Shown here one piece after another: positions 15,963-44,837 of a stretch of 64,000 nucleotides of DNA (position 1 is the first letter of the stretch; the number at the start of each line of letters is the position of its first letter). The notes beneath the pieces are model-generated. The model did no database searches, was not told where the DNA came from, and was given only the letters and a program-made list of their open reading frames with translations. The position numbers and the translations under genes were made by a program. The DNA comes from an uncultured Chthonomonadaceae bacterium (GTDB lineage Bacteria > Armatimonadota > Chthonomonadetes > Chthonomonadales > CAJBBX01): contig CAYSDM010000012.1 of the NCBI GenBank assembly GCA_964429855.1, positions 4,203 to 68,202 on the forward strand. Reading direction: 5' to 3'.

Positions 15963-15963
15963 T

Positions 15964-22986: not shown

Positions 22987-23271
22987 CTCAGCCTCTCTAT
23001 CCGTCTCTCGCGGGATGGTTTCGGGTTTGCCCGCCCTTGCGCGGTTCCGGCGCACGCGAGGGGAGAGACGCGAGCATCTATTTGTGGCTCTGTTCTCCGA
23101 GTGGAGGAGACAGTCCTGCCGTTTTGTGTGTGTGCGGCGGGAGAAGACTGTATTCGCATCCATCTCCCGAACATCGAAACGAAGGTGGCGAAGAGAGGAG
23201 GAAGGAGGAGGCGCAGGGCGAAGAGAATCCTGAAAGAGATTCATCACTACCTTCGGAGAGATGCAAGCGTT

Positions 23272-26200
23272 ATGAAAACCCCGATGACTCCGCCTTCCCG
23301 TCTGCACTCGCCCCGAACCGCTCTGATGCTCTGCCTGCTGTTGACCATGCTGCTGCCGGTCGCCGCACAGCAGAGGCGCGCCGTTCGCCCGGCGAAGCTG
23401 CAGTTCAACCGCGACATTCGCCCGATCCTGTCGGAAAACTGTTTTCCCTGTCATGGACCCGACAGAAACACCCTGAAGGCGAACCTGCGCCTCGATATTC
23501 GCGAGTCGGCGGTGCAGCGCGGAGCGATTGTTCCGGGCAGACCGGCGAAGAGCGGGCTGGCGGCGCGCATCCAGACGAAAAATCCCGGACTTATTATGCC
23601 GCCTCTCGCCTCGCATAAGAAGCTGACCCCGGCGCAAAAGAGTCTGCTGACGCGCTGGATAGAAGAGGGCGCGGAGTATCAGGCGCACTGGGCTTATCTT
23701 GCTCCTCGCCGTCCCGCGCTGCCCTCCGCGCGCGCCTCGCGCACTCCTCCCGACAATCCGATTGATCGTTTTATCTTTGCGCGGTTGGAGCAGAAGGGGC
23801 TGAAGCCCTCGCCTCTGGCGGATCGCCGCACGCTGATCCGGCGTCTCTCCCTTGATCTGATTGGCTTGCCTCCGACGCCGCAGGAGGTCGCCGCGTTTGT
23901 GGCGGATCGTTCTCCCAACGCCTATGAGAGGCTGGTGGATCGGCTGCTGGCATCGCCGCACTACGGGGAGCGGATGGCGGTTCCCTGGCTGGACGTGGTG
24001 CGCTATGCCGATACCGTCGGGTTTCATGGCGATCAGAACCAGAACGCCTGGGCATACCGCGACTATGTGATCTCCTCCTTTAATCAGAATAAACCCTTTG
24101 ACCGGTTTACCCGGGAGCAGATTGCAGGCGACCTGCTGCCCGACGCCACCCCGGAGACGCGCACCGCAACCTGCTTCCTCCGGCTGAATATGATGACCCG
24201 TGAGGGCGGCGCGCAGCCGAAAGAGTATCTTGCCAAATACTCCGCCGACCGCGTTCGCACCGTCGGCATGGCGTGGCTTGGCTCGACCCTTGCCTGTGCC
24301 GAGTGCCACGACCACAAGTACGACCCCTTCACCCAGAAAGACTTCTATTCGCTGGCGGCTTTCTTCGCCGATGTGAAGCAGTGGGGTGTCTATGCCGACT
24401 ACGGCTATACGCCTAACCCCGATCTGCGCGGCTATGATAACGACTCGCCGTTCCCGCCGGAGATTTTTGTCGAAAGCCGCTACCTGAAACAGCGCATCGA
24501 GCAGCAGCGGCGACGATTCGCGCAGATTGCCGAAAAGACCGAATCGCTTCTACAGACCGATTCCGCGCGCGAGGCGTACTCTCGCTGGCGCGGGCAGGGC
24601 GAAGCGTTTCTCACGAAGTACCCGCAGGGCTGGCAGACGCCGTCAGATCCACAGGTAACGGTCGCCAGGACGAAGACGCCTCCCGGCTATCGGATCGAGC
24701 CGGACGGCAGCATCCTCTTCACGGAACGGGCTCCCGCAGACGCAGCCATTACGCTGACGCCCCAGACCGAATGGATCGCGGCGCTGCGTCTGGAACTGCT
24801 GCCGCATACCGAACATAACGGCTCGCTCTTTCGACCGGGCAGCGAGGGCGGATACCTCTCTCTCTCCGCATCGGTGCTGCGCGCCGATGGCAAGACGGAG
24901 AATGTCGCTTTTCGCCATGCTGAAGCTAACCACTACCTGCCGCGTTATGCCAGCAGTTTCGAGATTATCGGCGTGCAGAGCGGATGGAAACTCTCCTCCG
25001 CGCATGCGAAGGAGCCGAATGTCGCGGTCTGGTTCCCCGCGACTCCTCTGCGGCTTCAGCCGGGCGAGACGCTGACGGTGAAGCTGCCCGGTCTTCGCGC
25101 AGGCTGCGTGCGTCTCTCCGTCTCTCCTTTTCCGCTTGACCATCCGGCTTTTTTGATGACTCCGGAGTCGCTTGCCGATGCGATGCGGACACCGAACGCG
25201 CTGACCGCACAAGCCTATCTGCTCGGAACCGCCTGGAATGCGGAGGCCTTTGCGCAGGCTCGCGAACAGGAGAACGACATTCTGGGATGCCGGAAGGGGA
25301 TCACGCCCGTGATGGTGGCGGTCTCCACAACCCCGCTGATAACCCGTGTGCTTCCGCGCGGCAACTGGCAGGACGAGAGCGGTCCGGTGGTACAGCCCGC
25401 AACGCCGCATTTCCTGCCGGGAAACCGGCCGGCGAACGGCAGGCGGCTGACCCGGCTCGATCTGGCAGACTGGCTGGTTTCGCCGGAGAATCCGTTGACG
25501 GCGCGCGTCTTCATGAACCGTCTCTGGAGACAGTTTTTCGGGAGCGGATTGAGCGCGCAGGTGGAGGATGTCGGGGCGCAGGGCGAATGGCCCTCTCATC
25601 CCGAACTGCTCGACTGGCTGGCGGTGGAGTTTCGCGAAAGCAGGTGGAACGTCAAGCGTATGGTCAGGATGATCGTCCTGTCGCACGCCTACCGGCAGTC
25701 CTCCCGTCTCGATCCGAAGCTGCGCGACCTCGACCCGAATAACCGGCTGCTCTCCAGCCAGAACCCGCGAAGACTGGAGGCGGAGTTTGTGCGCGATAAC
25801 GCGCTTGCCATCGTCGGGCTGCTGAATCGCGATCTTGGCGGCCCTCCCTGCAAGCCCTATCAGCCGCCCGGCTACTACGCTAATCTCCAGTTTCCGGATC
25901 GCGACTATATCGCCAGCCGGGATGATCAGCAGTGGCGGCGCGGAGTCTATATGCACTGGCAGCGAACCTTCCTGCATCCGATGCTGGCGAACTTCGACGC
26001 GCCCTCTCGCGAGGACTGTATCGCGATTCGCACCGCCGCCAACACTCCCCAGCAGGCGCTTACTCTCCTGAACGATCCCACCTTCGTCGAAGCGGCGAGG
26101 GTCTTCGCCGTCCGCCTGCTATCCGAACCGGTTTCCGGCGATGAGGCGCGGCTGGAACGCGCCTTTCAGCTTGCTCTGGGGCGTTCTGTGAAGCCCAAAG

Positions 26201-26391
26201 AGAGGCAGTCGCTTCTTGCCTTTCTGGCAAAGATAAGACCCATCTACCGGGAGAGACCGGAGGACACGAAAAAGCTGCTGACGCTCGGTTATGCGCCCGC
26301 CCCGACCGATTCAGACCCGGTGGAACTGGCGGCATGGACGAGCGTCTGCCGTGTCGTTCTGAATCTGCACGAGACCATTACCCGCTACTGA
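23272..26391 (+). CDS. PSCyt1 (CxxCH) - DUF1549 - DUF1553 protein
   Basis: This is the real part of track ORF 21379-26391. It has a signal peptide MKTPMTPPSRLHSPRTALMLCLLLTMLLPVAAQ and a heme motif CFPCH at 23440-23454. DUF1549 motif: DNPIDRFIFARLEQKGLKPSP..LIRRLSLDLIGLPPT. DUF1553 motif: CAECHDHKYDPFTQKDFYSLAAFF. Confidence 0.9.
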   Translation: MKTPMTPPSRLHSPRTALMLCLLLTMLLPVAAQQRRAVRPAKLQFNRDIRPILSENCFPCHGPDRNTLKANLRLDIRESAVQRGAIVPGRPAKSGLAARIQTKNPGLIMPPLASHKKLTPAQKSLLTRWIEEGAEYQAHWAYLAPRRPALPSARASRTPPDNPIDRFIFARLEQKGLKPSPLADRRTLIRRLSLDLIGLPPTPQEVAAFVADRSPNAYERLVDRLLASPHYGERMAVPWLDVVRYADTVGFHGDQNQNAWAYRDYVISSFNQNKPFDRFTREQIAGDLLPDATPETRTATCFLRLNMMTREGGAQPKEYLAKYSADRVRTVGMAWLGSTLACAECHDHKYDPFTQKDFYSLAAFFADVKQWGVYADYGYTPNPDLRGYDNDSPFPPEIFVESRYLKQRIEQQRRRFAQIAEKTESLLQTDSAREAYSRWRGQGEAFLTKYPQGWQTPSDPQVTVARTKTPPGYRIEPDGSILFTERAPADAAITLTPQTEWIAALRLELLPHTEHNGSLFRPGSEGGYLSLSASVLRADGKTENVAFRHAEANHYLPRYASSFEIIGVQSGWKLSSAHAKEPNVAVWFPATPLRLQPGETLTVKLPGLRAGCVRLSVSPFPLDHPAFLMTPESLADAMRTPNALTAQAYLLGTAWNAEAFAQAREQENDILGCRKGITPVMVAVSTTPLITRVLPRGNWQDESGPVVQPATPHFLPGNRPANGRRLTRLDLADWLVSPENPLTARVFMNRLWRQFFGSGLSAQVEDVGAQGEWPSHPELLDWLAVEFRESRWNVKRMVRMIVLSHAYRQSSRLDPKLRDLDPNNRLLSSQNPRRLEAEFVRDNALAIVGLLNRDLGGPPCKPYQPPGYYANLQFPDRDYIASRDDQQWRRGVYMHWQRTFLHPMLANFDAPSREDCIAIRTAANTPQQALTLLNDPTFVEAARVFAVRLLSEPVSGDEARLERAFQLALGRSVKPKERQSLLAFLAKIRPIYRERPEDTKKLLTLGYAPAPTDSDPVELAAWTSVCRVVLNLHETITRY

Positions 26392-26403
26392 GGAGAACCG
26401 ACG

Positions 26404-27852
26404 ATGAGCCATCCTTTTGACTCGAACGCCTTTGCGCAGAGCGTCAGCCGCCGCGCCTTTCTGCAGCGCTCCGCTTACGGGCTGGGAAGCCTGGCGCTGG
26501 GAATGCTGATCGGGGATCCGGCGCAGTCTCAGAGCCGCCGCTCCTCCGAGGGAATGCGGGGCGTGATCCGCGCGCCGCACTTTCCGGTTAAGGTGAAGCG
26601 GGTGATCCATCTGTGTATGGCGGGCGGACCGTCGCAGTTTGAGTGCCTGGACAATAAGCCGAAACTGCGCGAAATGCATGGCAAACCGTTCCCGGAGTCG
26701 CTGACGAAGGGACAACAGCTTGCGCAGCTTCAGAACTCGCAACTGATGGCGCGAGGCTCCGCCATTCCGTTCAAGCGGTGGGGGAAGTCCGGGCAGGAGA
26801 TCGCCGAAATCTTCCCGCAGATCGGCGGACTCGCCGACGAGATATGCATCATCCGCTCGATGGTCACCGAGCAGATCAATCACGATCCGGCGCAGGCGTT
26901 TATGAACTCAGGCTCCATTCTCAAAGGGCGTCCCAGCATGGGGTCCTGGCTGCTCTACGGGCTTGGCGCGGAGACGCAGAACCTGCCCGGATTCGTGGTG
27001 ATGGTTTCGCAGGGGCGGGGCGGAGGAGCGCAGCCGGTCTCGGCGCGGCAGTGGTCGAGCGGGTTTCTGCCGGGAAGGTATCAGGGCGTGCAGTTTCAGA
27101 CTCGCGGGGATGCGGTTCACTATGTAGGAAACCCGGAAGGAGTCTGCCAGAGCGCGCAAAGGCTGGTCGTGGAGGAGATCAAACGCCTGAACGGGGCGCT
27201 GGCGGAGGATCGCTTCGACCCGGAGATTCAGACGCGCATCGCGCAGTATGAACTGGCATTCCGCATGCAGACCAGCATTCCTGAACTGACCGATCTCTCC
27301 CGCGAATCGAAGCAGATGCTGGAGATGTACGGCGTCAAGCAGCCTGGCGACGGCAGCTTCGCCTCCAACTGCCTGCTGGCGCGGCGGCTGGCGGAGCGCG
27401 GCGTCCGATTTATTCAACTCTACCATCGCGCCTGGGATCATCACGGCGATATTGACCGCAACATGCCCATCTCCGCGCAGGAGACAGACGGACCCTGCGC
27501 CGCCCTGATCAAAGACCTGAAACAGCGCGGGATGCTGGACGATACGCTGATCATCTGGGGCGGCGAGTTCGGGCGCACGCCGATGGGGCAGGGCAGCGGT
27601 CGCGACCATCACATTCTTTCGTTTTCGATCTGGCTGGCAGGAGGCGGCATCAAGGGAGGCATTACCTACGGAGCTACCGACGAATTCGGGTATCGGTCAG
27701 TCGAGAATGTTGTTACCATGCATAACCTGCACGCGACGATGCTCTATCTGTGCGGCATTGATCATGAGCGATTCAGCGTGAAGTTTCAGGGACTGGACGC
27801 GCGCCTGACCGGAGTGGAGCCTACCCGCGTGATCCAGGAGATTCTGGCATAG
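26404..27852 (+). CDS. DUF1501 (sulfatase-fold) protein with twin-arginine signal
   Basis: TAT-like [22 protein letters not shown]1501 signatures [29 protein letters not shown] and GRDHH. Starts 12 nt after the PSCyt gene. Confidence 0.9.
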
Positions 27853-27865
27853 AGGAGAGATAGAG

Positions 27866-29083
27866 ATGACACCGCGTGAACGGGTTCTCCGCGCGCTTCA
27901 TTTTGAGGAGACCGACCGCGTGCCGCGCGATCTGGGCGCTATGCGCTCTACCGGGATCAGCGCATTCGCCTATCCGAAACTGGTGGAGGCGCTGGGGCTT
28001 CCTCCGCGTAGACCCCGGGTGCATGACACCGGACAGATGCTGGCGCTGCCGGATCGGGATGTGCTGGACGCGCTCGGCTGCGATGTGGTTACCATAGATG
28101 GCGGCGTGACCAACGCCTTCGAGGAGCCAGAGAAGTGGCATGACTACGATTTTGGCGGGCGGCTTCCGGCGCGGGTGCTGAGTCCGGAGGCGTTTGAGGC
28201 GCAGCCGGACGGGAGCGTGGTGCAGTGGAAGAGCCTGCGAATGCCCCCGACCTCCTACGTCTTCAATTCCGACCACAGCGGGCAGCCTCTCCTTGACCTC
28301 GATCAACCGCTTCCATTGCTTGACCTTAAGCAGTTTGCGAAAGACATCCAGGCGAACCCTATTACCGATGAGCAGATCAAGCGTACCGCCGATCTTGTCC
28401 GTCGGGTGCGTGAATCCACCGACCGCGCCGTCTTCTTCACCGACTTTTGCGGCTCCGGGCTGGGAATTGGCGGCTACTGCGGCATCGGCATCTTTCCCAT
28501 CATCTGCAAGCTGGAGCCGGAATTTGTACACGAATACCATGAACTTACCATCGAGCGCGCCATTCGGAACGTGCGCGCCATTCTGCCGGAGGTGCGCGAC
28601 TGCGTGGACATCATCATGACCACCGCGGACGACTGGGGAACGCAGAAGACCCTGATCGCCTCCCCGGAAACCTATCGAACGCTCTTCCTGCCCTACTACC
28701 GACGGCTGAATGACGAGGTGCATCGGCTGGTTCCCGGCGTCAAGATTTTCATGCATAACTGCGGCGCGATCTATGATCTGCTGGATATGATCGTGGAGAG
28801 CGGTTTCGATATTATCAACCCGATCCAGTGGCCCGCAGGCGGGCATACCTTTATGGAGTGGAAGGATCGCCTGCGCTGCCGGGCGACGATGTGGGGAGGA
28901 GGCGTGAACACGCAGCAGACCCTGACGCTGGGAACGTTGGAAGAGGTCGAGTGCGAGGTGGAGCGGGTGGTGCGTTACTGCAAACAGGACGGCGGCTACG
29001 TTTTCAACAACGTTCATAATCTGCTGGCGGAGGTTCCCCCGGAGAAGGTGATCGCCATGTATCGGGTGGCGGGAAGCGTATAG
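27866..29083 (+). CDS. uroporphyrinogen decarboxylase (URO-D) family protein, MtaA/CmuA-like
   Basis: N-terminus MTPRERVLRALHFEETDRVPRD and C-terminus DIINPIQW...GGYVFNNVHNLLAEVPPEKVIAMY, both typical of the URO-D-like fold. GAGGAGAGA RBS. Confidence 0.8.
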   Translation: MTPRERVLRALHFEETDRVPRDLGAMRSTGISAFAYPKLVEALGLPPRRPRVHDTGQMLALPDRDVLDALGCDVVTIDGGVTNAFEEPEKWHDYDFGGRLPARVLSPEAFEAQPDGSVVQWKSLRMPPTSYVFNSDHSGQPLLDLDQPLPLLDLKQFAKDIQANPITDEQIKRTADLVRRVRESTDRAVFFTDFCGSGLGIGGYCGIGIFPIICKLEPEFVHEYHELTIERAIRNVRAILPEVRDCVDIIMTTADDWGTQKTLIASPETYRTLFLPYYRRLNDEVHRLVPGVKIFMHNCGAIYDLLDMIVESGFDIINPIQWPAGGHTFMEWKDRLRCRATMWGGGVNTQQTLTLGTLEEVECEVERVVRYCKQDGGYVFNNVHNLLAEVPPEKVIAMYRVAGSV

Positions 29084-29114
29084 CGGGACGCATTTAGATG
29101 AAGCGAGGAGAGAT

Positions 29115-30173
29115 ATGCCGAAGGAGACCATGACGCCGCGCGAACGATGGCAGGTGGTGCTGCGGCGCGAGAAGCCGGATCGCGTGCCGATGGACTACTG
29201 GGCTACTGGCGAAGCGAATGAGAAACTGATGAAGCATCTGGGCTGTTCGGACATCCGGGAGATGTACCGGCGGCTGCATATAGATCGTCCGGTGGGCGTT
29301 GGACCGCGCTACGTGGGACCGACCCCGCCGCCAGGGGAGGATATATGGGGGATGCGCCACCGGCAGATTCAGTACGAAACCGGCGTCTATACCGAGTGCA
29401 TTCACCATCCTCTGGCGCATTTTCAGTCGGTGGAGGAGATCGAGGCAAACTATCGGTGGCCCCTGCCCGACTGGTGGGACTATTCGGAGATTCCGGCGCA
29501 GATCAAAGGATGGGAAGACTATCCGATTCAGGGCGGCGGCTCGGAGCCTTTCCTGCACTACTGTCAGCTTCGCGGACTGGAGCAGGGGATGATGGACCTG
29601 GCGCTGAACCCGGAGATGGTTCACTATGCGCTGGATAAGCTGTTCCATCTCGCCTATGAGAACACGCGCCGCATCTACGAGCAGATTCCGGGGAAGGTGC
29701 TGCTCTCCTATGTGGCGGAGGATATGGGGTCGCAGGAGAGCCTGCTCTTTTCTGTCAAACAGATCAAGGAGTTCCTGCTGCCCGGCATGAAGCGGATGAT
29801 GGATCTGGCGCACGAGGCGGGAGTCTATGTCTTCCATCACAGCGACGGGGCGATCCGCCCAATCCTGCCGACGATGATCGAAGCCGGGATTGACGTGCTG
29901 AATCCGATTCAGTGGCGGTGCAAAGGGATGGAGCGCGAGGGGCTGAAGCGCGATTTCGGCGATCAGGTAGTCTTTCACGGCGGCGTAGATAACCAGTATA
30001 CGCTGGCGCGCGGGACGGTTGAGGAGGTGCGGCAGGAGGTCGAAGACAACCTGCGGATACTGGGCGCGGGCGGCGGCTATATGATTGCGCCCTGCCACAA
30101 TATTCAGGCGGTCAGCCCGCCGGAAAATATCGTTGCGATGTATGAGACCGGATACGCCCTCGGCTGGCAGTAA
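29115..30173 (+). CDS. uroporphyrinogen decarboxylase (URO-D) family protein, paralog of upstream gene
   Basis: MTPRERWQVVLRREKPDRVPMD... and DVLNPIQW...GGYMIAPCHNIQAVSPPENIVAMY. Co-linear with the 27866 gene at protein level. GAGGAG lies 4 nt upstream. Confidence 0.8.
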   Translation: MPKETMTPRERWQVVLRREKPDRVPMDYWATGEANEKLMKHLGCSDIREMYRRLHIDRPVGVGPRYVGPTPPPGEDIWGMRHRQIQYETGVYTECIHHPLAHFQSVEEIEANYRWPLPDWWDYSEIPAQIKGWEDYPIQGGGSEPFLHYCQLRGLEQGMMDLALNPEMVHYALDKLFHLAYENTRRIYEQIPGKVLLSYVAEDMGSQESLLFSVKQIKEFLLPGMKRMMDLAHEAGVYVFHHSDGAIRPILPTMIEAGIDVLNPIQWRCKGMEREGLKRDFGDQVVFHGGVDNQYTLARGTVEEVRQEVEDNLRILGAGGGYMIAPCHNIQAVSPPENIVAMYETGYALGWQ

Positions 30174-30196
30174 CCGGTGAGGAAAGGGAGACGGGA

Positions 30197-33100
30197 ATGA
30201 GTCGCAGCAGGATACTGCTCTGGGTAGTTGCCGGAATGCTCTGGGCTTCGGTGTGTGGGGCGCAGAGCGCGCTGGATGCCGGTTTCCGCACGCCTCCCGG
30301 TTCGGCGCACCCGCATACCTGGTGGCACTGGGTGAACGGCAACATTACCCGCGAGGGCATCACCGCCGACCTGGAGGCGATGAAACGCGCCGGGATCGGA
30401 GGCGCGCAGATTTTTAACGTGGACTGCGGGCTGCCCGCCGGTCCGGTTCTTTTTATGAGTCCGGAGTGGCGCGCGCTGATCACGCACGCCGTGAAAGAGG
30501 CGGATCGGCTCGGAATTGAACTGTGCATTCATAACTGTGCGGGCTGGTCGAGCAGCGGCGGTCCCTGGATCACGCCGGAACACTCGATGCAGATACTGAC
30601 CTGGAGTGAAACAACGGCGCGCGGTCCGCAGAAGTTCGCCGCGCCGCTCCCGCAGCCCCCGTCGCGCATGAACTACTATCGCGATATCGCCGTGCTGGCG
30701 TTTCGCACGCCGTCCGGCGAGACGGCGGAGCGGAAGCTGCGCCTCTCGCAGGTCAACGTCAAGGCGGCGTTCGAGCGCGGCGACCGCATCCTGCCCGACC
30801 TCTCCCCGACCCCGCCCGATCTGGCGATCCCGCGCGCGGGCGTGATGAATCTCACTCCGCAGATGGATGCAGAAGGACGTCTGACATGGGACGTGCCGGA
30901 AGGGGAGTGGACCGTTCTGCGCCTGGGGCATACGACGACCGGGAAAGATAATCATCCCTCTATTCCCGAAGGGCGCGGGCTGGAGTGCGACAAGATGAGC
31001 CGGGAGGCGATGGATCGGCACTGGTCCGGCATGATGGCGACCGTCCTTCGCGATCTGGGACCGCTGGCGGGGCGCGTGCTCAATAACGCGCTGATAGACA
31101 GCTATGAGGTGGGAAGCCAGAACTGGACGCCGAAGTTTCGCGAGGAGTTTCGGCGGAGGCGCGGCTACGATCCGCTGCCGTTTATGCCGGTGGTTAGCGG
31201 GCGCGTGGTGGACAGTCTCGCGGTCAGCGAGCGATTTCTGTGGGACTTTCGGCGCACCATCTCCGACCTGTTTGCCGATAACTACTTCGCCTACTTCGGG
31301 GAGTTGTGCCGGAAGCAGGGGATGCTCTTCTCCGTGGAGCCCTACGGCAACGGCTCTTTCGACAATATTCAGAGCGGCGGGCTGGCGGATATTCCGATGG
31401 GCGAGTTCTGGGTGGGCGGAGCCGCGATTGAGACAACCAAGCTCGCCTCCTCCATCGCGCACACGCACGGGCGAAAGCATGTCGGGGCAGAATCCTTCAC
31501 AGCGGACGATACGCGCGGACGCTGGCTGGTAGACCCGTACTCCATCAAGGCGCTGGGGGATTTGGCGTTCTGCAACGGCGTCAACCGCTATATCTTCCAT
31601 CGCTACGCCCATCAGCCCTGGACAGACCTCTATCCTGGCCTGACGATGGGACCGTGGGGAATGCATCTGGAGCGCACCGTCACCTGGTGGCATCAGGGCG
31701 CGGCATGGCTGCGTTATGTGGCGCGCTGTCAGTATCTCCTGCAGTCGGGTCTTTTTGTCGCCGACGCCTGCTACTTCTACGGGGACTCCGGTCCCAACGA
31801 CCTGCTCTATCGCAACGCCCTGCGTCCGGAACTGCCCAACGGCTACGACTACGACGGATGCGATGCGGCGACTCTGCGGCGCATGAAGGTGAAAAACGGG
31901 CGGATCGTTCTGCCGGACGGCATGAGCTACCGCGTGCTGATCCTGCCGGAGACGACCTTTATGACCCCGGCGACCCTGCGCGCAATCCGTCGGCTGGCGC
32001 AGGAGGGCGCGACGATCCTCGGACCAAAACCCACGCACTCGCCGAGCCTGTCGGACTACCCCCGTTGCGATGACGAGGTGAGAAGGCTGGCGGACGAGGT
32101 CTGGGGAGACTGCGACGGCAAGACGGTGAAGGAGCGGCGATTCGGCAAGGGACGCATTCTCTGGGGAAAGCCGCTGCAGACCGTCTTCTCGGAGAGGGGC
32201 GTTTCGCCCGACTTCTCCTATCGCAGCGGCTCCCGCGAGACCCGGCTGATCTACATTCACCGCATGGCGAACGGCGCGGATATTTACTTCGTGTCGAACC
32301 AGCGCTACCGCAATGAGACGGCGGACGCGATCTTCCGGGTGCAGGGACGGCAGCCAGAACTCTGGAACCCGATGACCGGGGAGATACAGCCCGCGCCGGT
32401 CTTCCGACAGGAGCAGGGGCGCACAGTGGTGCCACTCACCCTGGAACCGGCAGGCTCCGTCTTTGTGGTCTTCCGTAAGCCGCTGCGTGATTCCGATCAT
32501 CTGACGCAGTTGACCCGTTCCGGTCCGAAGCCGCCGCCGGGGACTCGCATACTGGTGGAGATTCGGCGCGCCTTCTATGGCGCGGCGGACGGACGGGGCG
32601 CGGATGTGACCGAGAAGGTTGCCGGGATGGTCGCCGATGGAGTCTATGCGATTCCCGCAACTAACGCCGCTTTCGGCGACCCGGTGGTGAATGTTGTCAA
32701 GCAGTTAACCGTCGAGTATCTGCTGAACGGTAAGGAGAAGCGGCAGGTTGTCCCTGAAAACGAGACGATGGAACTGGCGGAATCGCGTGACCCGATCTCC
32801 TATCCGGCGTTTGAGGTGATGACGGATCGAAGCGGCGCTGCCATTCTGCTGCCCTGGCAGGCAGGCGTCTATCAGGCGCGCACGGCGAAGGGCAAGATGT
32901 GGAAGGCGGAGGTTCGGGATTCCGCCCGCCCGCTGACGCTCACCAACGCCTGGCGGCTGCGTTTCCCGACCGGAAAAGGCGCGCCGTCAGAGATTCGCCT
33001 GAGTCGCCTGCTCTCCTGGACGGAACATGAACAGCCCGGCGTGCGCTACTTCTCCGGCACAGCGGAGTACACGACGACCTTCACCGTTCCGGCGGCGATG

Positions 33101-33502
33101 CTGTCCGGGAAGCGGGTGGTATCGCTCGATTTGGGGCGGGTGAAAAACTTCGCCGAAGTCCAGGTGAACGGGCGCAGTCTGGGCGTCCTGTGGAAGGAGC
33201 CGTTCCGTCTGGATGTGACCGGGCTGGTGAAATCCGGACCGAACAGGCTGACGGTGCGCGTAACCAATCTGTGGCCCAACCGCCTGATCGGGGACGCGCA
33301 GCAGCCGGAAGAGGTGGAGTGGAGCGGCGACGCGATCAGAAAGTGGCCCGACTGGGTCTGGAAGGGCGCGCCGCGTCCTGCGACCACGCGCCTGACCTTC
33401 ACGACCTGGCGATTCTATCGCAAAGATTCGCCGCTGCTGGAATCAGGGCTTCTCGGACCGGTGACGCTTCGCTCCGCGCCGAAGATCGTTCTGAAGAGGT
33501 GA
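30197..33502 (+). CDS. large secreted glycoside hydrolase (GH106 alpha-L-rhamnosidase-like / GH2 sugar-binding-domain type)
   Basis: Signal peptide MSRSRILLWVVAGMLWASVCGAQS. The opening FRTPPGSAHPHTWWHWVNGNITREGITADLEAMKRAGIGGAQIF and the ~1100-aa size match what I recall of the GH106-type family. The assignment is from memory only. Confidence 0.7.
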   Translation: MSRSRILLWVVAGMLWASVCGAQSALDAGFRTPPGSAHPHTWWHWVNGNITREGITADLEAMKRAGIGGAQIFNVDCGLPAGPVLFMSPEWRALITHAVKEADRLGIELCIHNCAGWSSSGGPWITPEHSMQILTWSETTARGPQKFAAPLPQPPSRMNYYRDIAVLAFRTPSGETAERKLRLSQVNVKAAFERGDRILPDLSPTPPDLAIPRAGVMNLTPQMDAEGRLTWDVPEGEWTVLRLGHTTTGKDNHPSIPEGRGLECDKMSREAMDRHWSGMMATVLRDLGPLAGRVLNNALIDSYEVGSQNWTPKFREEFRRRRGYDPLPFMPVVSGRVVDSLAVSERFLWDFRRTISDLFADNYFAYFGELCRKQGMLFSVEPYGNGSFDNIQSGGLADIPMGEFWVGGAAIETTKLASSIAHTHGRKHVGAESFTADDTRGRWLVDPYSIKALGDLAFCNGVNRYIFHRYAHQPWTDLYPGLTMGPWGMHLERTVTWWHQGAAWLRYVARCQYLLQSGLFVADACYFYGDSGPNDLLYRNALRPELPNGYDYDGCDAATLRRMKVKNGRIVLPDGMSYRVLILPETTFMTPATLRAIRRLAQEGATILGPKPTHSPSLSDYPRCDDEVRRLADEVWGDCDGKTVKERRFGKGRILWGKPLQTVFSERGVSPDFSYRSGSRETRLIYIHRMANGADIYFVSNQRYRNETADAIFRVQGRQPELWNPMTGEIQPAPVFRQEQGRTVVPLTLEPAGSVFVVFRKPLRDSDHLTQLTRSGPKPPPGTRILVEIRRAFYGAADGRGADVTEKVAGMVADGVYAIPATNAAFGDPVVNVVKQLTVEYLLNGKEKRQVVPENETMELAESRDPISYPAFEVMTDRSGAAILLPWQAGVYQARTAKGKMWKAEVRDSARPLTLTNAWRLRFPTGKGAPSEIRLSRLLSWTEHEQPGVRYFSGTAEYTTTFTVPAAMLSGKRVVSLDLGRVKNFAEVQVNGRSLGVLWKEPFRLDVTGLVKSGPNRLTVRVTNLWPNRLIGDAQQPEEVEWSGDAIRKWPDWVWKGAPRPATTRLTFTTWRFYRKDSPLLESGLLGPVTLRSAPKIVLKR

Positions 33503-33509
33503 AGCTCCC

Positions 33510-36017
33510 ATGCGCTGCACACAGTGGAAGTTGTTCTGGACTGTTTTCGCGCTCAGTGCCCAGTCGGTCTGCCTGCCCGCCTCTATCCAGGCGCAGAGCG
33601 CCTCTCTCTCGCTGCGCGCCGAAAATCGGATGGCGAAGGGGTGGGGCGCGGGCGGCTGGGGAAACTATCGGTTCACGCTGAAGAATCCGACCGATCGAGA
33701 GGCGTTCATCGTGAAGTGGACTGCCCGCTGGGAGGTGAAGGGCAAGCCGTTCGGGGATGCGTGGGGCGGGGAGGTGAACGAACCGCTGCCCCCCGGCAAA
33801 GAGTGGATGCGCGAGGAGGCGGGACTGCTGCCGGAGGAGGTGGCGCGCGCGGCAAAGCCGGAGAAGCCGGTGATGGCGGGAACCTTCACGCTGCGTCAGG
33901 GAGAGCGCGTCCTGGAACTGCCCTATCGTCTGGAGATTCCGGAGGCAACGCTGCCGGAGCCGTTGAAGCTGGTGAAGGGGAAGACGGTCGGGATGAGCCT
34001 GATGGAGTCTCGCTATCGCTCCTTCAAACATCTGGATCGCGCCTTGCGCTGGATAGATCAGTGTTATTCCGCCATGATCGAGATGACCGGAGAGAAGCCG
34101 TTCAACGGCAGGCGGATGGTCTTTCGAGAAGCCCCCGCGCATCCCTGGTGGGCTTACGCCGGACAGGAGATGATTCTCAATACCGACTATGTCGGCTCCA
34201 CGCTCAGGGAGTTCGACGAGGGGCTGATCTCCTTCGGCTGGGTGCATGAGGTCGGGCATAACTTCGACGAGAAACTGGGGAAGTGGTATATCTGGAACGG
34301 ACCTTCGGCGGAATGGCAGGCGAACTTCAAGCTGGCTTACGCCTTCGAGACGATTCCCGATCAGTCTTACCGCATTCGCTGGACCTTTCAGGCTCCCGGC
34401 TTTCCGGCTCCAGACCGCAATATCCGTCTGCGCGGCGTAGAACTGGTGGAGCGATTCTTCCTGATGTTCGGCGATGCCTATCTTGCCGACCCGTCGCGAA
34501 AGTGGGAGACGCTCTCCTCCGACGAGATGCACAGCCTCTTTCAGCGGCTTCAGCGTGTCTACGGCTGGGAGATCTTCAAAAATTGGTATCGCGCCTACCG
34601 TCGGCTGGAAGATGCCGGGATGAAGCCTCCGGAGCAGGCAGAAGAGAAGGTGAGCCTGATCGTCGCGATCCTGAGCGCAGAGGCAAAGACCGATCTGATC
34701 CCTGTGTTTCAGCGGTGGCGTTTTCCGGTCACCCCGGAGAGCGTGCAGGCCATGCGCGACCGCTACCGGATCGGCGAACGAACCGCCTCCGGGACGGAGA
34801 TAGCGGCGGAGGACGCGGCCGGACTCTATGAGCGTACCGGCGCGCCGATGGACTGCGCGATTCTCTTGCCGGAAACGCTGCGGCGCGCGGCGGTGCAGGG
34901 AGGTCTGTTTTTGCGGGAGGAGGGCAGCGCGCAGCGAATCCCGGCGCAGTACGATCCCGGCGCAGGCAGGCTCTACTGGCTGATGTCTGCTGGAAAGGCG
35001 GGACGCCGCGCGCTGCGACTGGTGGAATCGTCTCCGGCGGAGCCGCTCCTGCGCGCCGCGATAGACGCCTCCAGCGGGCAGGCGATGGTAACAGAGGCGG
35101 GACGCCCGGTTCTCCGTTATAACTTCCAGACCCTCTCTCCCGGCGAACTCCTGACTTCCATCTCCGAAGCGAACCGCATCTACGCCCGCCCTCGCAGCGA
35201 CTATATTCATCCGCTCTACGGTCTGGATGGGGAGGAGTTGACGAAAGACTGGTCGCTCGATCATCCGCACCATCGCGGCATCTACTGGGCATGGCCCGAG
35301 GTGGACTTTCGCGGAGAGCGCGGCGACCTGCATGCGCTTCAGCGAGTCTTCGCCCGTCCGATCGGTGAATGCAGACTGCAGAGCGGATCGGTCTACGCGC
35401 AGATCGAGGCGGAAAACCGCTGGATGTGGGAAGAGCGCACTCCGATCGTCCGGGAACGGGCCGTCATTCGGGTCTATCGCGCCACGCCACAGGGACGCTG
35501 TATTGACCTGACGCTGCATTTTACGGCGCTGGAGGAGGATGTCTCCCTTGCCCGGCGCGGAACCGACCTGTACGGCGGCTTGAACGTCCGGCTCTCGGCC
35601 GTGCAGGAGCAGCAGATTCAGTTCTACACCGATCCGCCTGGCGTCTATCCTCGCAAAGCCTTTGCGACGCTTCGGGGGAGGTTTGCGGGCGCAGGTCAGA
35701 CCGTTGCGAGGTTTGCGGGCGCAGGTCAGACCGTTGCGCTGACCATTCTCCAGCATCGCGCCAATCCGGACTACCCCGGCGACTGGGTACAGTATCCGGA
35801 ACTGAACTGGTTTCAGCCGACCTTCCCGGCTTCCGGCACGCGCTGGACGCTGAAGAAGGGGCAGACCCTCACGCTGCGATATCGGCTCTGGATCGCGCGC
35901 ACTGAGCAGGTGGACGCCGCGCTCTGCGCCGACCAGTGGCGCGTCTACAACGATCTTTCCCTCATATCCGGTGGTGATGTAAGCCGTATTCAGACCATGC
36001 ACAGAGGAAAACGATGA
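33510..36017 (+). CDS. secreted fusion protein: M60-like (enhancin-type) zinc peptidase domain plus DUF6807/PmoA-family domain
   Basis: Signal peptide ending SIQAQS. HExxH motif is WVHEVGHNFD. The C-terminal half has YIHPLYGLDGEELT...LDHPHHRGIYWAW and LQHRANPDYPGDW, typical of the DUF6807/PmoA family. Confidence 0.75.
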   Translation: MRCTQWKLFWTVFALSAQSVCLPASIQAQSASLSLRAENRMAKGWGAGGWGNYRFTLKNPTDREAFIVKWTARWEVKGKPFGDAWGGEVNEPLPPGKEWMREEAGLLPEEVARAAKPEKPVMAGTFTLRQGERVLELPYRLEIPEATLPEPLKLVKGKTVGMSLMESRYRSFKHLDRALRWIDQCYSAMIEMTGEKPFNGRRMVFREAPAHPWWAYAGQEMILNTDYVGSTLREFDEGLISFGWVHEVGHNFDEKLGKWYIWNGPSAEWQANFKLAYAFETIPDQSYRIRWTFQAPGFPAPDRNIRLRGVELVERFFLMFGDAYLADPSRKWETLSSDEMHSLFQRLQRVYGWEIFKNWYRAYRRLEDAGMKPPEQAEEKVSLIVAILSAEAKTDLIPVFQRWRFPVTPESVQAMRDRYRIGERTASGTEIAAEDAAGLYERTGAPMDCAILLPETLRRAAVQGGLFLREEGSAQRIPAQYDPGAGRLYWLMSAGKAGRRALRLVESSPAEPLLRAAIDASSGQAMVTEAGRPVLRYNFQTLSPGELLTSISEANRIYARPRSDYIHPLYGLDGEELTKDWSLDHPHHRGIYWAWPEVDFRGERGDLHALQRVFARPIGECRLQSGSVYAQIEAENRWMWEERTPIVRERAVIRVYRATPQGRCIDLTLHFTALEEDVSLARRGTDLYGGLNVRLSAVQEQQIQFYTDPPGVYPRKAFATLRGRFAGAGQTVARFAGAGQTVALTILQHRANPDYPGDWVQYPELNWFQPTFPASGTRWTLKKGQTLTLRYRLWIARTEQVDAALCADQWRVYNDLSLISGGDVSRIQTMHRGKR
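35678..35737 (+). repeat. perfect 30-bp tandem duplication inside CDS
   Basis: gaggtttgcgggcgcaggtcagaccgttgc occurs at 35678-35707 and again, identical, at 35708-35737. It is in frame and gives RFAGAGQTVA twice. Confidence 0.95.
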
Positions 36018-37372
36018 AAGCCAAAACCTGTACCGATCCGCCTTCTCGTCGTCAGTTTCTTCAGTCGGCTGCCGCCGCTGTTGTTTTACCGGAGATCATT
36101 CCTGCTGGAGCGCTGGGGCGGGAAGGCGCGCCGCCGCCCTCCGAACGGATACAACTGGGCGTTATCGGGGTCAATGGGATGGGGCGCGCCAACCTGCAAA
36201 ACTGCGCGCAGTACCCCGATGTGGTTGTGACGGCGGTCTGCGATGTCTATCAGGCGCGGCTGGATGCCGCGCTGGAGCCGCATAAGTCCACCGCAAAGGG
36301 CTATCGGGACTATCGAGAGCTTCTGGCGCGTAAAGATGTGGATGCGGTGATCATTGCGACGCCCCCGCACTGGCACGCGCTGATGGCGATTCATGCGGCG
36401 GAGGCGAAAAAGGACATCTACCTTCAAAAGCCGATGACGCTCTATCCCGAAGAGACGCTGGCGGTGCGCAACGCCGTCAACCGCCACGGGGTGATCAGCC
36501 AGATCGGCACACAGATACACGCCTCCGCCAACTACCGACGGGTGGTGGAGTGGGTTCGCTCCGGCAAACTGGGACCGATCAACACCGTCCGCACCTTCAA
36601 CGTGATGAACCAGGGACCCAACGGGATAGGACATGCGCCGAATGAGCCGCCGCCGGAAGGTCTGGACTGGGAGATGTGGCTGGGACCTGCGCCAAAACGC
36701 GCCTTCAACCGTCTGCTCTTCGCTGACGCCTACTATCACGGCTCCTTCTGGGACTACTCTGGCGGGTGGACACCCGGCATGGCGCCCCATATTATTGATC
36801 TGCCGGTCTGGGCGCTAGATCTGGGCGTTCCGACGCTGACAAGCTGCTCCGGCGGGCGGCTGGTTGTCCGGGACGACGGGGACGCCCCCGACACGCAGGA
36901 GGTGCTGTGGCAGTATCCGGGCGTGACGATGACCTGGATGATGAGTCTGTGTAACAGCTTCGGGTTCGACTTCGGTCGCGGAACGCCCTCGCGACGCCTC
37001 GGCATCTACCTTCACGGCATGAACGGAACGCTGATCGCCGACTATGGTCGCTGCGAGGTGGTGCCGGAAGGCGATATGCTCAAAGACGCCTCGCCGCCGC
37101 CGCCCTCCATCCCGCCGTCGCCCGGTCATGAGCGGGAGTGGCTGGACTGCATTAAGTCGAGGCAGCAGCCCTCCTGCAGCGTCAACTATCACTATCGGGT
37201 GGATATGGCGATCACGCTGGCAAACCTCTCCTATAGACTGGGACGCTCCCTGCGCTTCGATCCGAAGACAGAGCGAATTACTGGCGATGCACAGGCTGCG
37301 CGCATGGCGCGTCCAGTCTACCGCTCCCCCTGGAAGTTTCCGGAGGAGTATCTGAAACAGCAGAAAAGCTGA
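36014..37372 (+). CDS. TAT-exported Gfo/Idh/MocA family oxidoreductase
   Basis: Twin-arginine SRRQFLQSAAAAVV. Rossmann motif LGVIGVNGMGRANL. Core motif KDIYLQKP. ATGA overlap with the upstream stop (36014-36017). Confidence 0.9.
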   Translation: MKAKTCTDPPSRRQFLQSAAAAVVLPEIIPAGALGREGAPPPSERIQLGVIGVNGMGRANLQNCAQYPDVVVTAVCDVYQARLDAALEPHKSTAKGYRDYRELLARKDVDAVIIATPPHWHALMAIHAAEAKKDIYLQKPMTLYPEETLAVRNAVNRHGVISQIGTQIHASANYRRVVEWVRSGKLGPINTVRTFNVMNQGPNGIGHAPNEPPPEGLDWEMWLGPAPKRAFNRLLFADAYYHGSFWDYSGGWTPGMAPHIIDLPVWALDLGVPTLTSCSGGRLVVRDDGDAPDTQEVLWQYPGVTMTWMMSLCNSFGFDFGRGTPSRRLGIYLHGMNGTLIADYGRCEVVPEGDMLKDASPPPPSIPPSPGHEREWLDCIKSRQQPSCSVNYHYRVDMAITLANLSYRLGRSLRFDPKTERITGDAQAARMARPVYRSPWKFPEEYLKQQKS

Positions 37373-37399
37373 TACAAGACGGTATCTCGGGCGGCGCGC

Positions 37400-38275
37400 T
37401 CAGAGTAGCTGCGCCGCCATCGCCTCTATCTCCTCGAAACGCTCCTCCGCCAGCAGCTGTCCGTAGTGTACCAGACCGCGCTCCCCGATCAAGCCCCAGG
37501 AGTGCCAGGGATGGCGTGTGCGCCATCCGGTCACCTGCGCGGTGATGAGGGCGCGCTCTGCGCGGACAAAGTCGGCGCGTTTTGCGGCGTCCCATCCGGG
37601 CATGGCGCGCGCCAGAATCGCCAGACGCTCCACGATCCGGTCCGCGTATCGCCTGCCAAGCTCCGGCGATGCACCTTTCTCGATAGCGTCCGTTGCTCCA
37701 TACTCCGCATCGTCGCGGATACGCCCGATATCCACCAGTTCCGGGATCAGATGCCACAGCAGAGACGTTTCGCCGATCCCCGCATGGTCTCCCAGATAGC
37801 CCGCATCATGCGCCAGCCAGTACTCTGGCGTGCCAAGCACCGGAATCTGCAGCCGCTCTGTCATGCGCGTCCCGACCTCGCGCACCACGATCTGCTGATT
37901 ATGCCCGTAGTGTCCGGTCAGCATCAGAATGGCGCGAAATCCCTGCCGGTGAAACTCATAGCATAACTGTTCCAGCCAGGGGCGCAGAAGGTGATTCTCC
38001 CAGGCGTTTTCCCCCTCCATCACCACCGTCGCGGGTCTATCCAGACCGCCCATTCCCCCGTAGACCGGCGGATGAACCACCCCGCCGCCCGCTTTTTCTG
38101 CAGCCTGCACGCAGAGCGCGTGCGCTTTCAGGCTGTCCAGACCCAGCGCGTTGTGTTCGCCGTGCCACTCCACCGTCCCCAGCGGCAGAAAGACGGTTGG
38201 AAGGGCGGCGACCGCCTCGCGAAACTCTGCCGGAAGCATACGCTCCCATTGAATACGCTCTTTGAGCGGACTCAT
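37400..38275 (-). CDS. creatininase (creatinine amidohydrolase) family protein
   Basis: LPLGTVEWHGEHNALGLD and LTGHYGHNQ motifs; 291 aa. Confidence 0.85.
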   Translation of the reverse strand: MSPLKERIQWERMLPAEFREAVAALPTVFLPLGTVEWHGEHNALGLDSLKAHALCVQAAEKAGGGVVHPPVYGGMGGLDRPATVVMEGENAWENHLLRPWLEQLCYEFHRQGFRAILMLTGHYGHNQQIVVREVGTRMTERLQIPVLGTPEYWLAHDAGYLGDHAGIGETSLLWHLIPELVDIGRIRDDAEYGATDAIEKGASPELGRRYADRIVERLAILARAMPGWDAAKRADFVRAERALITAQVTGWRTRHPWHSWGLIGERGLVHYGQLLAEERFEEIEAMAAQLL

Positions 38276-38364
38276 GACAAACCTCCTGCAAGGTGTAAAG
38301 GCATTCAGTTATCGAAGTCACGATAAATAAAATAAAAATTATATGGTAAAAATTTGTGTTTTTG

Positions 38365-38478: not shown

Positions 38479-39273
38479 ATGCACCGAAGAGGCGCCTTTA
38501 CACTGATCGAGCTGCTCGTTGTCATCGCCATTATCGCGATTCTTGCAGCGATCCTCTTTCCCGTCTTCGCGCAGGCGCGCGAGTCTGCGCGTAAGACTAA
38601 CTGCCTGTCGAACCTGAAGCAGATCGGCACGGCGGCGATGATGTATATCCAGGACTATGACGAACAGTTCATGGAGGTCTACCGCTGGCACGAGAACACC
38701 TGGTGGGAGGTCTGGCCTGCGGGCGAGTACCCGAAGCCCGGTTCTAGCGAAGTGTACGGCTGGTATACCGCTCCTCGCGATCTGATGAACCAGTACGGCA
38801 TCACTCCCAACTGGGCGTATCTACTGGCCAGCGTCTATACCAAAAATGCGCAGCTCTTTGCCTGTCCCTCCGGCTTTCCCACCTGGTGGCGCCCTGCCAC
38901 CAGCAGCGACGACATGGGGTATGTGCTGACCAACTGGATTGCCGATCGGGGGATCGCCCCCTGGGACTCCAACTGGCGCGGCTCTGCGCGTATCTCCTTC
39001 ATTCCGCGCCCGGCGGAGACGATCCTGTTCTGGGAGCATGGCAAGGCCAACTGGGCGGTGGAGATCCATGGCTGGAACGGCTATCGAGACTGGAATCCCA
39101 CCTTCCCCGGACCGGAGTGGACCTGTCCTAACTGCTGGCCCGACTGGCTCCCGCAGCATGCCGGCGGACGCAATTTCACCTTCTGCGACGGTCATGCGAA
39201 GTGGGCGAAGGATGCCTCCATTGACATCTGGCACTATCCGGACCGGTGGGACTATCGCCTGCAGCAGAACTGA
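38479..39273 (+). CDS. prepilin-type N-terminal cleavage/methylation domain protein, DUF1559 (H-X9-DG) family
   Basis: [31 protein letters not shown], followed by [16 protein letters not shown] (H-X9-DG). AAGGAGG RBS. Confidence 0.9.
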
Positions 39274-41574: not shown

Positions 41575-41631
41575 CCTTCTCTCCTTATTCATGGAATGTT
41601 CTTTTTTCGGTCGTCCGACGAGAGACGACCC

Positions 41632-44729: not shown

Positions 44730-44837
44730 GATGGAAGGAACGGGCAGGAACTCGGGAACGAGGGAGCTTTAGAGAGAGAGACATCGCCGGAATCATCGCA
44801 GGCGTCGCAGAGGGGAAAGGTCGGATTCCTGTTTTAT

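Follow-up and report, generated by a model that had tools for sequence, protein, structure and literature searches.

The window analysed here, meaning the whole stretch of 64,000 nucleotides, comes from an uncultured soil or water bacterium that is related to Chthonomonadales (Armatimonadota), and the subject of this report is a run of seven plus-strand genes within it, named G1 to G7. G1 (23272-26391) encodes a PSCyt1-DUF1549-DUF1553 protein of 1039 amino acids (aa) with a Sec-type leader and is preceded by a GGAGAG ribosome-binding site. G2 (26404-27852) encodes a DUF1501 protein of 482 aa with a twin-arginine leader and is followed by two genes for cytoplasmic proteins, G3 (27866-29083, 405 aa), an enzyme with the TIM-barrel fold of URO-D/MtaA, and G4 (29115-30173, 352 aa), a second URO-D-like enzyme. 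G5 (30197-33502, 1101 aa) is a GH106-family protein with a C-terminal jelly-roll domain and a Sec-type leader, G6 (33510-36017, 835 aa) is a fusion of an M60-like domain to DUF6807, also with a Sec-type leader, and G7 (36014-37372, 452 aa) is a Gfo/Idh/MocA dehydrogenase with a twin-arginine leader. A preliminary description of this DNA had given the same positions, which were reproduced exactly from the list of open reading frames. The gaps of 12, 13, 31, 23 and 7 nt and the single ATGA overlap were confirmed, and the families assigned to the seven proteins, checked with hidden Markov models, were each confirmed by Pfam.

A ribosome-binding site of the GGAG/GAGG type lies 5-12 nt upstream of every one of the seven genes, and their G+C content at third codon positions (0.71-0.79 across G1-G7) supports the reading frames. 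JGI and Logan assemblies, which are independent, carry this operon as well, with shared genes 100% identical in protein (tblastn), and it is therefore not an assembly artefact. Since no terminator-like or promoter-like site was found between G1 and G7 (counts in the region were at or below shuffle expectation) and the Rfam scan of the locus gave no match, co-transcription of the seven genes is plausible. The stop codon of G6 overlaps the start codon of G7 in the sequence acgATGAaa, and G7 is, judged by this ATGA overlap, translationally coupled to G6. We regard the operon as real, probably co-transcribed and under purifying selection. Leader types were assigned by inspecting the N-termini, and five of the seven proteins are predicted to be exported, G1, G5 and G6 by Sec-type leaders and G2 and G7 by twin-arginine leaders. 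G3 and G4 lack a leader and start at the same position as their orthologs, hence both are considered cytoplasmic. The preliminary description had counted four Sec or hydrophobic leaders and two twin-arginine signals; the latter two stand, and the Sec-type leaders number three.

We then asked how far the set is conserved. Two anchor sets were used, one of 80 species-representative genomic loci with a G3 ortholog and their 10-kb flanks, the other of 80 metagenome contigs with a G4 ortholog. Homologs of G1, G2, G5 and G6 were found near none of the 80 G3 orthologs, and homologs of G1, G2 and G6 near none of the 80 G4 orthologs, where a single GH106-like match of 23% identity was seen. The exact combination was thus absent at all 160 anchored loci. 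Absence from related genomes had been named in the preliminary description as an outcome that would refute its proposal, and this is largely what was observed. The complete set of seven genes was found only in the clade of the window, at ~88% DNA identity, namely in the window, in L176/L177/L179 and in L178, the sisters also having the divergent upstream gene G0 and the downstream creatininase gene described below. Sister lineages were found by exact and near-exact look-ups; they share ~88% nucleotide identity, and four of them together with the window make five lineages.

The two remaining sisters, L084 and L180, show how the operon has been remodelled. In L084, an in-frame deletion of G3 residues 222-375 (window 28477-28990; L084 2895-3590) removes the invariant residues H297 and C299; it is flanked by 9-bp direct repeats, GGCGGCTAC, and is microhomology-mediated. 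The same lineage has lost most of G5, with window 30224-33367 missing at L084 4728-4896 and only the last 44 codons remaining. In L180, window 30319-33573 is missing at L180 9977-10200, with another junction than in L084, and this deletion joins the first ~41 codons of G5, which encode the signal peptide, in frame to codon 22 of G6, giving an exported G6 of 865 aa. Three independent deletions have occurred across the sister lineages, one removing the catalytic half of G3 and two the GH106 gene, and the locus is a clear natural example of operon remodelling by repeated in-frame deletions that preserve export signals. G1, G2, G4, G6 and G7 are kept in the same order in all five lineages, with ratios of nonsynonymous to synonymous substitution rates (dN/dS) of 0.06-0.21 for the retained genes (0.14 for G1 and 0.06 for G2 against a sister genome), and G4 is kept at 93-95% identity in each of the four sisters. 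The segment L180 10184-14032 is 95% identical in DNA to window 33573-37451, which carries G6-G7 (98.9% protein identity for G7), compared with ~88% for the flanking genes, suggesting recent recombination between lineages across this module.

The protein lost twice, G5, is a clear member of its family. It matches GH106 of Pfam over the full length (716 bits, 7e-215, profile positions 2-738 of 743) and also carries a GH2_N-like jelly roll according to Pfam, and the NCBIfam model rhamnoside_JR is matched at 164 bits for a cut-off of 50. Like GH106 alpha-L-rhamnosidases such as BT4145, G5 thus combines a full-length, high-scoring catalytic domain with a rhamnosidase-type jelly roll, and it is Sec-exported. 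It differs from BT4145 in scoring 291 bits against the 1300 required by the BT4145 equivalog model, hence is not an equivalog, and in being encoded by a gene that is dispensable in sister lineages. G5 is an accessory gene of the operon, lost twice independently. Rhamnose, which the preliminary description had offered as a possible component of the substrate, is for this reason unlikely to define it, the two lineages without GH106 having kept the rest of the operon.

G6 is made of two halves. Residues 1 to ~425 correspond to an M60-like gluzincin, in which H246EVGH250 (nt 34245-34259) is followed by E268 with 17 residues between, in agreement with the M60-like pattern HEXXHX(8,28)E (Nakjang et al. 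2012, PMC3267712). H246, E247, H250 and E268 are nearly invariant in 28 homologs of this half. The Pfam Peptidase_M60 match covers only profile positions 127-275 of 275 (3.7e-6, 27-29 bits for a cut-off of 25.8) and the match to PDB 4fca only 85 residues (E 2e-4). Residues ~427-815 form the DUF6807 domain (PF14100; 3e-32, 113-115 bits with the cut-off at 27, spanning positions 4-269 of the 270 in the profile), which contains the invariant motif D584-H-P-H587-H588-R-G and the further invariant residues W593, W638, Y688, G690 and R694. DUF6807 was formerly mislabelled 'PmoA', and in the literature we found DUF6807/PF14100 mentioned only in passing, with no function described. The AlphaFold (AF2) model of the C-terminal half (predicted local distance difference test, pLDDT, 90.4) is an all-beta domain. 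Its sole PDB matches are weak (template modelling, TM, scores of 0.28-0.39), and all of them are galactose-mutarotase-like supersandwich domains of carbohydrate enzymes, namely GalM, LacZ domain 5, the N-terminal domains of GH63 and GH65, OpgD, polysaccharide lyases and GH174.

The relatives of both halves point to carbohydrate-related settings. Relatives of DUF6807 are fused to a GH29 fucosidase with PA14 and to HEAT with F5/8-type-C domains, while GH20 and a GH63-like domain are the fusion partners seen in relatives of the zincin half. Stand-alone forms of both halves are common and have their own signal peptides, the N-terminal half in proteins of ~410-450 aa (e.g. P0127, 60% identity) and DUF6807 in proteins of ~330-440 aa. 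In contrast, a word-index search found M60-like and DUF6807 together only in G6 and its 85%-identical sister, and no other protein combined them among the best 150 matches inspected from an exhaustive HMMER search over 1.84 billion cluster-representative proteins. One candidate for a second fusion, P0126, was rejected, as Pfam showed two tandem M60-like domains. P0127 and P0130 lie on contigs of ~3 kb that give little context, the start of a Gfo gene being visible after P0130. With the M60-like/enhancin O-glycopeptidases (PF13402; PMC3267712; PDB 4fca/5ev7), G6 shares the gluzincin motif, export and relatives with carbohydrate-active fusions. It differs from them by its marginal score, by a host that is free-living and environmental rather than animal-associated, by having no recognisable CBM32, CBM51 or BACON domain, and by the fusion to DUF6807, which is unique to the window clade. 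The DUF6807 domain also contains a perfect in-frame 30-bp tandem duplication (35678-35738, plus strand; TRF score 122, 100% match) that encodes RFAGAGQTVA twice in a loop of low model confidence, where pLDDT dips; the close relative L180 has one copy, indicating that the duplication is very recent.

G7 matches GFO_IDH_MocA of Pfam and has a twin-arginine signal with the leader motif S11RRQFLQ. Its best NCBIfam match is BT_2158_fam, a glycoside 3-dehydrogenase (3e-53, profile positions 1-287 of 487), at 181 bits for a cut-off of 750, so that it falls below the equivalog level. At family level the relation is clear, the nearest PDB entries being the dehydrogenases 8tdf (3e-32) and 8tdh (1e-30), with the glucuronide 3-dehydrogenase 8tdi more distant. 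BT2158 itself belongs to the Gfo family, is exported by the twin-arginine route and was proposed to oxidise disaccharides at C3 by means of a tightly bound cofactor, and enzymes of this type require a re-oxidant not yet identified (PMC8121099). The comparison extends to the BT2156-BT2160 3-keto-glycoside pathway of Bacteroides thetaiotaomicron (Liu et al. 2021, PMC8121099): its twin-arginine Gfo/Idh/MocA enzyme is the best family match of G7, the periplasmic setting is shared, the structures 8tdf/8tdh are the best structure match, and in L172, and there only, the orthologous DUF6807-Gfo pair adjoins DUF1080 '3keto-disac_hyd' genes, that is, genes for 3-keto-disaccharide hydrolases. The window operon differs from this pathway in that it has no SusR regulator and that neither a DUF1080 hydrolase nor a sugar-phosphate-isomerase-like lyase/hydratase is encoded among the seven genes or in the flanks. 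The partner of G7 is instead DUF6807, a family with no described activity, and the gap between 181 and 750 bits applies here too.

The pairing of DUF6807 with such an enzyme recurs. In six of the seven contexts sampled (the window clade, L168, L169, L172, L181 and L184, and not L175), the gene immediately downstream of DUF6807 is a Gfo gene resembling G7, identical to G7 at 76% in L169, 64% in L172, 60% in L181 and 52% in L168 (over the available 100 residues); those of L168, L172, L181 and L184 are of the twin-arginine type. In L169, a Chthonomonadales metagenome-assembled genome (GCA_020849275.1), a stand-alone M60-like gene (69% identity to G6 residues 23-421), a DUF6807 gene (54%) and the Gfo gene lie within 5 kb. 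This trio stands among LacI, ABC-transporter, GH172 and S9-peptidase genes, and no PSCyt or DUF1501 gene accompanies it; more generally, none was found in any of the six DUF6807 contexts examined outside the window clade, of which five have a Gfo partner. Because the trio exists as separate genes in L169 and the DUF6807-Gfo pairing recurs, G6 represents a Rosetta-stone fusion, in which two components of the recurring three-gene module are joined. We also observed in L169 (3406-6990) a gene for a protein of 1194 aa with no Pfam family, located directly upstream of the DUF6807-Gfo pair and downstream of the LacI/ABC sugar-transporter set; this protein has no homolog in the window.

The two cytoplasmic enzymes, G3 and G4, each match URO-D of Pfam partially (~3e-20, 73 bits each). 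They miss the NCBIfam MtaA/CmuA cut-off of 235 by far (38 bits for G3, 38-42 for the two proteins), and for the HemE model TIGR01464, with a cut-off of 303, G3 scores 21.8 bits and G4 gives no match. They are distant paralogs of each other, with 36% identity over the C-terminal 187 aa. The AF2 model of G3 (pLDDT 91.9) was matched by Foldseek to HemE (URO-D) and to MtaA of M. mazei, with TM scores of 0.57-0.68 when target-normalised and 0.51-0.58 when query-normalised and ~14% identity, a fold match that does not discriminate HemE from Methanosarcina MtaA. H297, C299, H384 and D255-D256-W257 are invariant in the G3 family; at the corresponding sites G4 has H242 and D244 in place of HxC, and C327-H328 at the third site. 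These residues suggest a putative metal site of the type His / Cys-or-Asp / His. Compared with the URO-D/MtaA-CmuA superfamily, G3 and G4 thus share the fold, and G3 the H-x-C at the position of the MtaA zinc site. However, every equivalog or subfamily cut-off is missed, and instead of the His-Cys-Cys of MtaA the third ligand would be a His (H384) in G3, with His/Asp/Cys-His in G4.

Both families are found in many surroundings. The G3 family gave 1403 matches of 54-90% identity in Armatimonadota, Chloroflexota, Planctomycetota, Verrucomicrobiota and Lentisphaerota, and the orthologs in the 80 anchor genomes (54-80% identity, five phyla) have variable neighbours. Representatives of 20 recurrent neighbour clusters were annotated with Pfam and comprised ABC and MFS sugar transporters, GH127, GH38, GH31, an aldolase, PFK, a deaminase, an enolase-superfamily protein and AFOR, among others, and no single partner occurred in more than 12 of the 80 loci. 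G4 orthologs are 67-79% identical in the 80 contigs, where a generic Gfo gene was present in five and a distant URO-D paralog was the sole recurrent neighbour. No B12-binding or corrinoid family was found in the window or among the 20 Pfam-checked clusters, which come from the G3-anchored loci only, another difference from MtaA-CmuA, and we found nothing in the literature linking URO-D-family proteins to methylated sugars. Methyl transfer by G3/G4 was considered and dropped, as no corrinoid partner was found and the MtaA/CmuA cut-off was missed. The link to methylated glycans put forward in the preliminary description is therefore unsupported, G3 and G4 having no detected corrinoid partner, no signal peptide and no conserved neighbour. 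As a side observation, the two families are unusually conserved with no fixed partner, and tandem arrays of distant URO-D paralogs recur (loci L004-L166); they are cytoplasmic enzymes under strong constraint and may be horizontally mobile.

At the head of the operon, G1 matches PSCyt1 (1.5e-11), DUF1549 (4e-89) and DUF1553 (9e-96) of Pfam, and G2 matches DUF1501 (7.5e-150, 500 bits). Two CxxCH motifs in G1, C57FPCH (nt 23440-23454) and C342AECH (nt 24295-24309), predict attachment of heme c, and the twin-arginine leader motif of G2 is S15RRAFLQ. With these motifs, the domain set and a gap of 12 nt between the genes, G1-G2 form a PSCyt/PSD1 and DUF1501 module, DUF1501 proteins being the usual partners of G1-type proteins. 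Such pairs are widespread and highly duplicated, with no established function (PMC3542564; PMC5615132); an electron-transfer role was proposed for PSCyt proteins by Kamneva et al. in 2012 (PMC3542564) and a role in carbohydrate metabolism by He et al. in 2017, who reported that PSCyt gene density follows oxygenated water layers (PMC5615132). The window pair resembles the PSCyt1/PSCyt2/PSD1 and DUF1501 pairs of Planctomycetota, Verrucomicrobiota and Lentisphaerota (hereafter PVC pairs, from PVC-type genomes) in architecture, adjacency, twin-arginine DUF1501 and CxxCH motifs, as well as in having a paralog in the genome and carbohydrate-active genes nearby (PMC3542564; PMC5615132). In contrast to them, its host lies outside the PVC group, with relatives in Armatimonadota, and it stands at the head of an operon whose other genes are of the URO-D-like, GH106, M60-like/DUF6807 and Gfo types. 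Such a setting had not been reported earlier and is not conserved beyond the window clade. Our literature search found no paper with both DUF1553 and DUF1501 as terms.

Sequence searches of the PDB gave no meaningful match for G1, G2 or G3. A profile of four DUF1501 sequences matched 7all at an arylsulfatase motif below threshold (E 0.77). Pfam places DUF1501 in the alkaline-phosphatase clan, with which this sub-threshold match agrees, although the match does not amount to evidence. No homolog of G1 or G2 was present in ~2 Mb of flanks around the G3/G4 orthologs, and we found nothing that ties the G1-G2 pair specifically to G3-G7. Few modules of unknown function are duplicated as heavily in PVC-type genomes as this pair, and a conserved enzymatic context would make its function testable; the surroundings seen here lack such conservation, and the operon therefore leaves that function unexplained. 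The paralogous module of the window lies at 42078-47465 and consists of a DUF1549/DUF1553 protein without PSCyt1 and with a weak Big-like domain, a GT4 glycosyltransferase gene inserted between the partners, and then DUF1501. Downstream (3') of it follow M42 peptidase, SDR, DUF6785/DUF6784 and MarC genes. The paralogous module is syntenic in L084 and L180.

The reading that we favour, and to which we give about an even chance, is that of a recently assembled, lineage-specific mosaic operon of four independently evolving units that would serve periplasmic glycoconjugate processing and not one dedicated pathway. Unit A would be the widespread pair of the G1 heme-c protein and the twin-arginine-exported DUF1501 protein G2, unit B the cytoplasmic URO-D/MtaA-fold enzymes G3 and G4, from conserved families that occur in many different contexts, unit C the optional exported GH106 hydrolase G5, and unit D the periplasmic module G6-G7, with an M60-like zinc peptidase domain, DUF6807 and a twin-arginine Gfo-type dehydrogenase, the first two merged into a single polypeptide in the window lineage. 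In the proposed scheme, the zincin domain of G6 would cut or hold a glycoconjugate in the periplasm by acting on its peptide or aglycone part, and G7 would oxidise its sugar. The product of this oxidation would then be bound or processed further by DUF6807, presumably a supersandwich domain that binds sugars and that has an invariant His-His motif, a role comparable to that of the DUF1080 3-keto-glycoside hydrolase. GH106, where present, may trim terminal rhamnose-type caps. Units A and B would be co-expressed with the others, and nothing shows that they share a substrate with the rest. The preliminary description had called the partners of the PSCyt/DUF1501 pair carbohydrate-active or redox-like, and this holds for the exported ones, given that G5 is a GH106 protein, that G7 is near glycoside 3-dehydrogenases and that relatives of G6 are fused to glycoside hydrolases.

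Beyond the already described heme/DUF1501 pair, the only recurring part of the operon that was found is the trio of M60-like protein, DUF6807 and sugar dehydrogenase. It leads to a broader proposal, which we put forward tentatively and consider on balance unlikely: M60-like protein, DUF6807 and twin-arginine Gfo enzyme would form a three-component periplasmic system not recognised before, widely distributed as separate genes in Chthonomonadales (L169) and in several unclassified metagenomic lineages. In it, DUF6807 would be the missing partner, catalytic or binding, of glycoside-3-dehydrogenase-like enzymes and a functional analogue of the DUF1080 hydrolase, the target would be a glycopeptide or proteoglycan, and the heme-c/DUF1501 accessory may have been recruited in the window lineage as a redox or de-esterification aid. 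The M60-like/DUF6807 fusion with its coupled twin-arginine Gfo dehydrogenase is what the operon offers of most information, and it yields a testable hypothesis for an orphan family, with DUF6807 as the upstream partner of twin-arginine glycoside-3-dehydrogenase-like enzymes, and if this were true, the oxidative route of glycoside cleavage would reach beyond Bacteroidota and connect to glycoprotein degradation.

Several points weigh against the mosaic reading and the scheme attached to it. The catalytic roles of the seven proteins and their close orthologs are all predicted. The substrate and regiochemistry of G7 would not be fixed by the BT2158 model at 181 of 750 bits, the Pfam M60 match of G6 is marginal (27-29 bits) and concerns the C-terminal half of the profile only, and the fold matches of the DUF6807 model, with TM scores of 0.28-0.39, are weak. 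For the DUF6807-Gfo pairing, the basis is seven sampled contexts rather than a count across whole genomes. The independence of the units is also open to objection, since the tight spacing and the retention of G1, G2, G4, G6 and G7 in all five lineages could still reflect a shared function that escapes tests of conservation over larger distances. In addition, one run of genes in the unrelated genome L181 (8001-12910) comprises DUF6807, then a Gfo gene of the twin-arginine type that is 60% identical to G7, a gene of the URO-D family with an MtaA-type HxC...C and only 26% identity to G4, and a second Gfo gene of cytoplasmic type, a weak hint at a link between units B and D.

Among the alternatives, the one that survives best, which we still find doubtful, is a neutral juxtaposition in which unrelated genes were packed together by rearrangement and deletion, in a genome lineage with scattered and badly ordered pathways, and are co-transcribed with no common substrate, G6-G7 being functionally untied to the rest. 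It would suit the surroundings, as the remaining window mixes unrelated housekeeping and signalling genes, deletions are frequent at the locus, and G3 and G4 are without a conserved partner; a 'seemingly disorganized genome' has also been reported for the carbohydrate scavenger Chthonomonas calidirosea (PMC4959169), in line with this mixture. However, in each of the five lineages G1, G2, G4, G6 and G7 have stayed next to one another with their order unchanged and are under purifying selection, the L180 deletion of G5 left G6 with an in-frame signal peptide, which suggests selection for its continued export and expression, and the spacing of 7-31 nt with an ATGA overlap is tighter than is usual by chance.

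A second alternative, the one closest to the preliminary description, is a dedicated single pathway in which PSCyt/DUF1501 would capture a rhamnose-containing or methylated glycan or glycoprotein, GH106 and M60 would cleave it, the URO-D-like enzymes would demethylate it and the Gfo enzyme would oxidise it. The tight packing of co-directional genes, each of which has its own ribosome-binding site and between which no terminator was found, agrees with this idea, as do the export of five of the seven proteins with a carbohydrate theme shared by the exported enzymes, the RHGA-like beta-helix and mannitol-dehydrogenase-family genes upstream, and the URO-D-family gene that directly follows the DUF6807-Gfo pair in L181. 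We nevertheless judge it improbable. A coupled pathway headed by PSCyt/DUF1501 does not fit the absence of the combination at the 160 ortholog-anchored loci and in L169, where the G6/G7 orthologs stand in an ABC-transporter context, nor does it fit the two losses of GH106 and the single loss of G3 from an operon whose other genes remained under purifying selection. Furthermore, both URO-D-like proteins reside in the cytoplasm, fall short of the MtaA and HemE models and have no corrinoid family in the 20 G3 neighbour clusters checked with Pfam, and no transporter joining the periplasmic and cytoplasmic steps is encoded among the seven genes according to Pfam.

Finally, a redox coupling in which the heme c of G1 re-oxidises NAD(P)H bound to G7 in a respiration-linked sugar oxidation, with DUF1501 as a de-esterifying hydrolase, would account for the two CxxCH motifs, for the re-oxidant that BT2158-type enzymes need, for the proposed electron transfer by PSCyt proteins and for their density in oxygenated water layers, but it is very improbable, given that PSCyt/DUF1501 genes lie near none of the six other DUF6807 contexts, that the ~2 Mb of flanks hold no G1 or G2 homolog, and that no mechanism is known by which a c-type heme would take up electrons from NAD(P)H bound to an enzyme.

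Upstream, the operon is flanked by the divergent gene G0 (20677-22986, minus strand), which encodes a cytoplasmic protein of 769 aa with no signal peptide and no detected family. The preliminary description had named it a putative glycosidase, for which there is no basis: no match was found in Pfam even at E <= 10, in NCBIfam or among PDB sequences. Copies of G0 that are 88% identical occupy the same position in L176 and L180. The spacer between G0 and G1 (22987-23271) was correctly described as 285 bp long. When read, it showed no sigma-70-like site, no riboswitch or Rfam family and no notable repeat, and the nucleotide alignment with relatives breaks within it. Downstream, a convergent creatininase-family gene (37400-38275, minus strand; Pfam 3e-29) bounds the operon. 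In L084 window 37739-38174 is missing, which truncates this gene, and in L180 window 37451-38309 is missing, and the gene with it; these two lineages are also the ones without GH106.

The rest of the window contains unrelated genes, among them genes for c-di-GMP signalling, menaquinone synthesis, MutS2, glycogen phosphorylase, arginine synthesis and a STAND/TPR regulator. Further upstream on the plus strand, 13577-17934 encodes a mannitol-dehydrogenase-family oxidoreductase, a GNAT protein and an RHGA-like beta-helix protein, which may hint at pectin or hexuronate; glycogen phosphorylase and G0 intervene before the operon. On the other side, two DUF1559/prepilin-type N-methylation proteins are encoded in opposite orientation at 38479-39273 (plus strand) and 40726-41592 (minus strand), and the 5' ends of their genes share ~170 nt at 74% identity, forming an inverted repeat around DUF123 and YjbQ genes.

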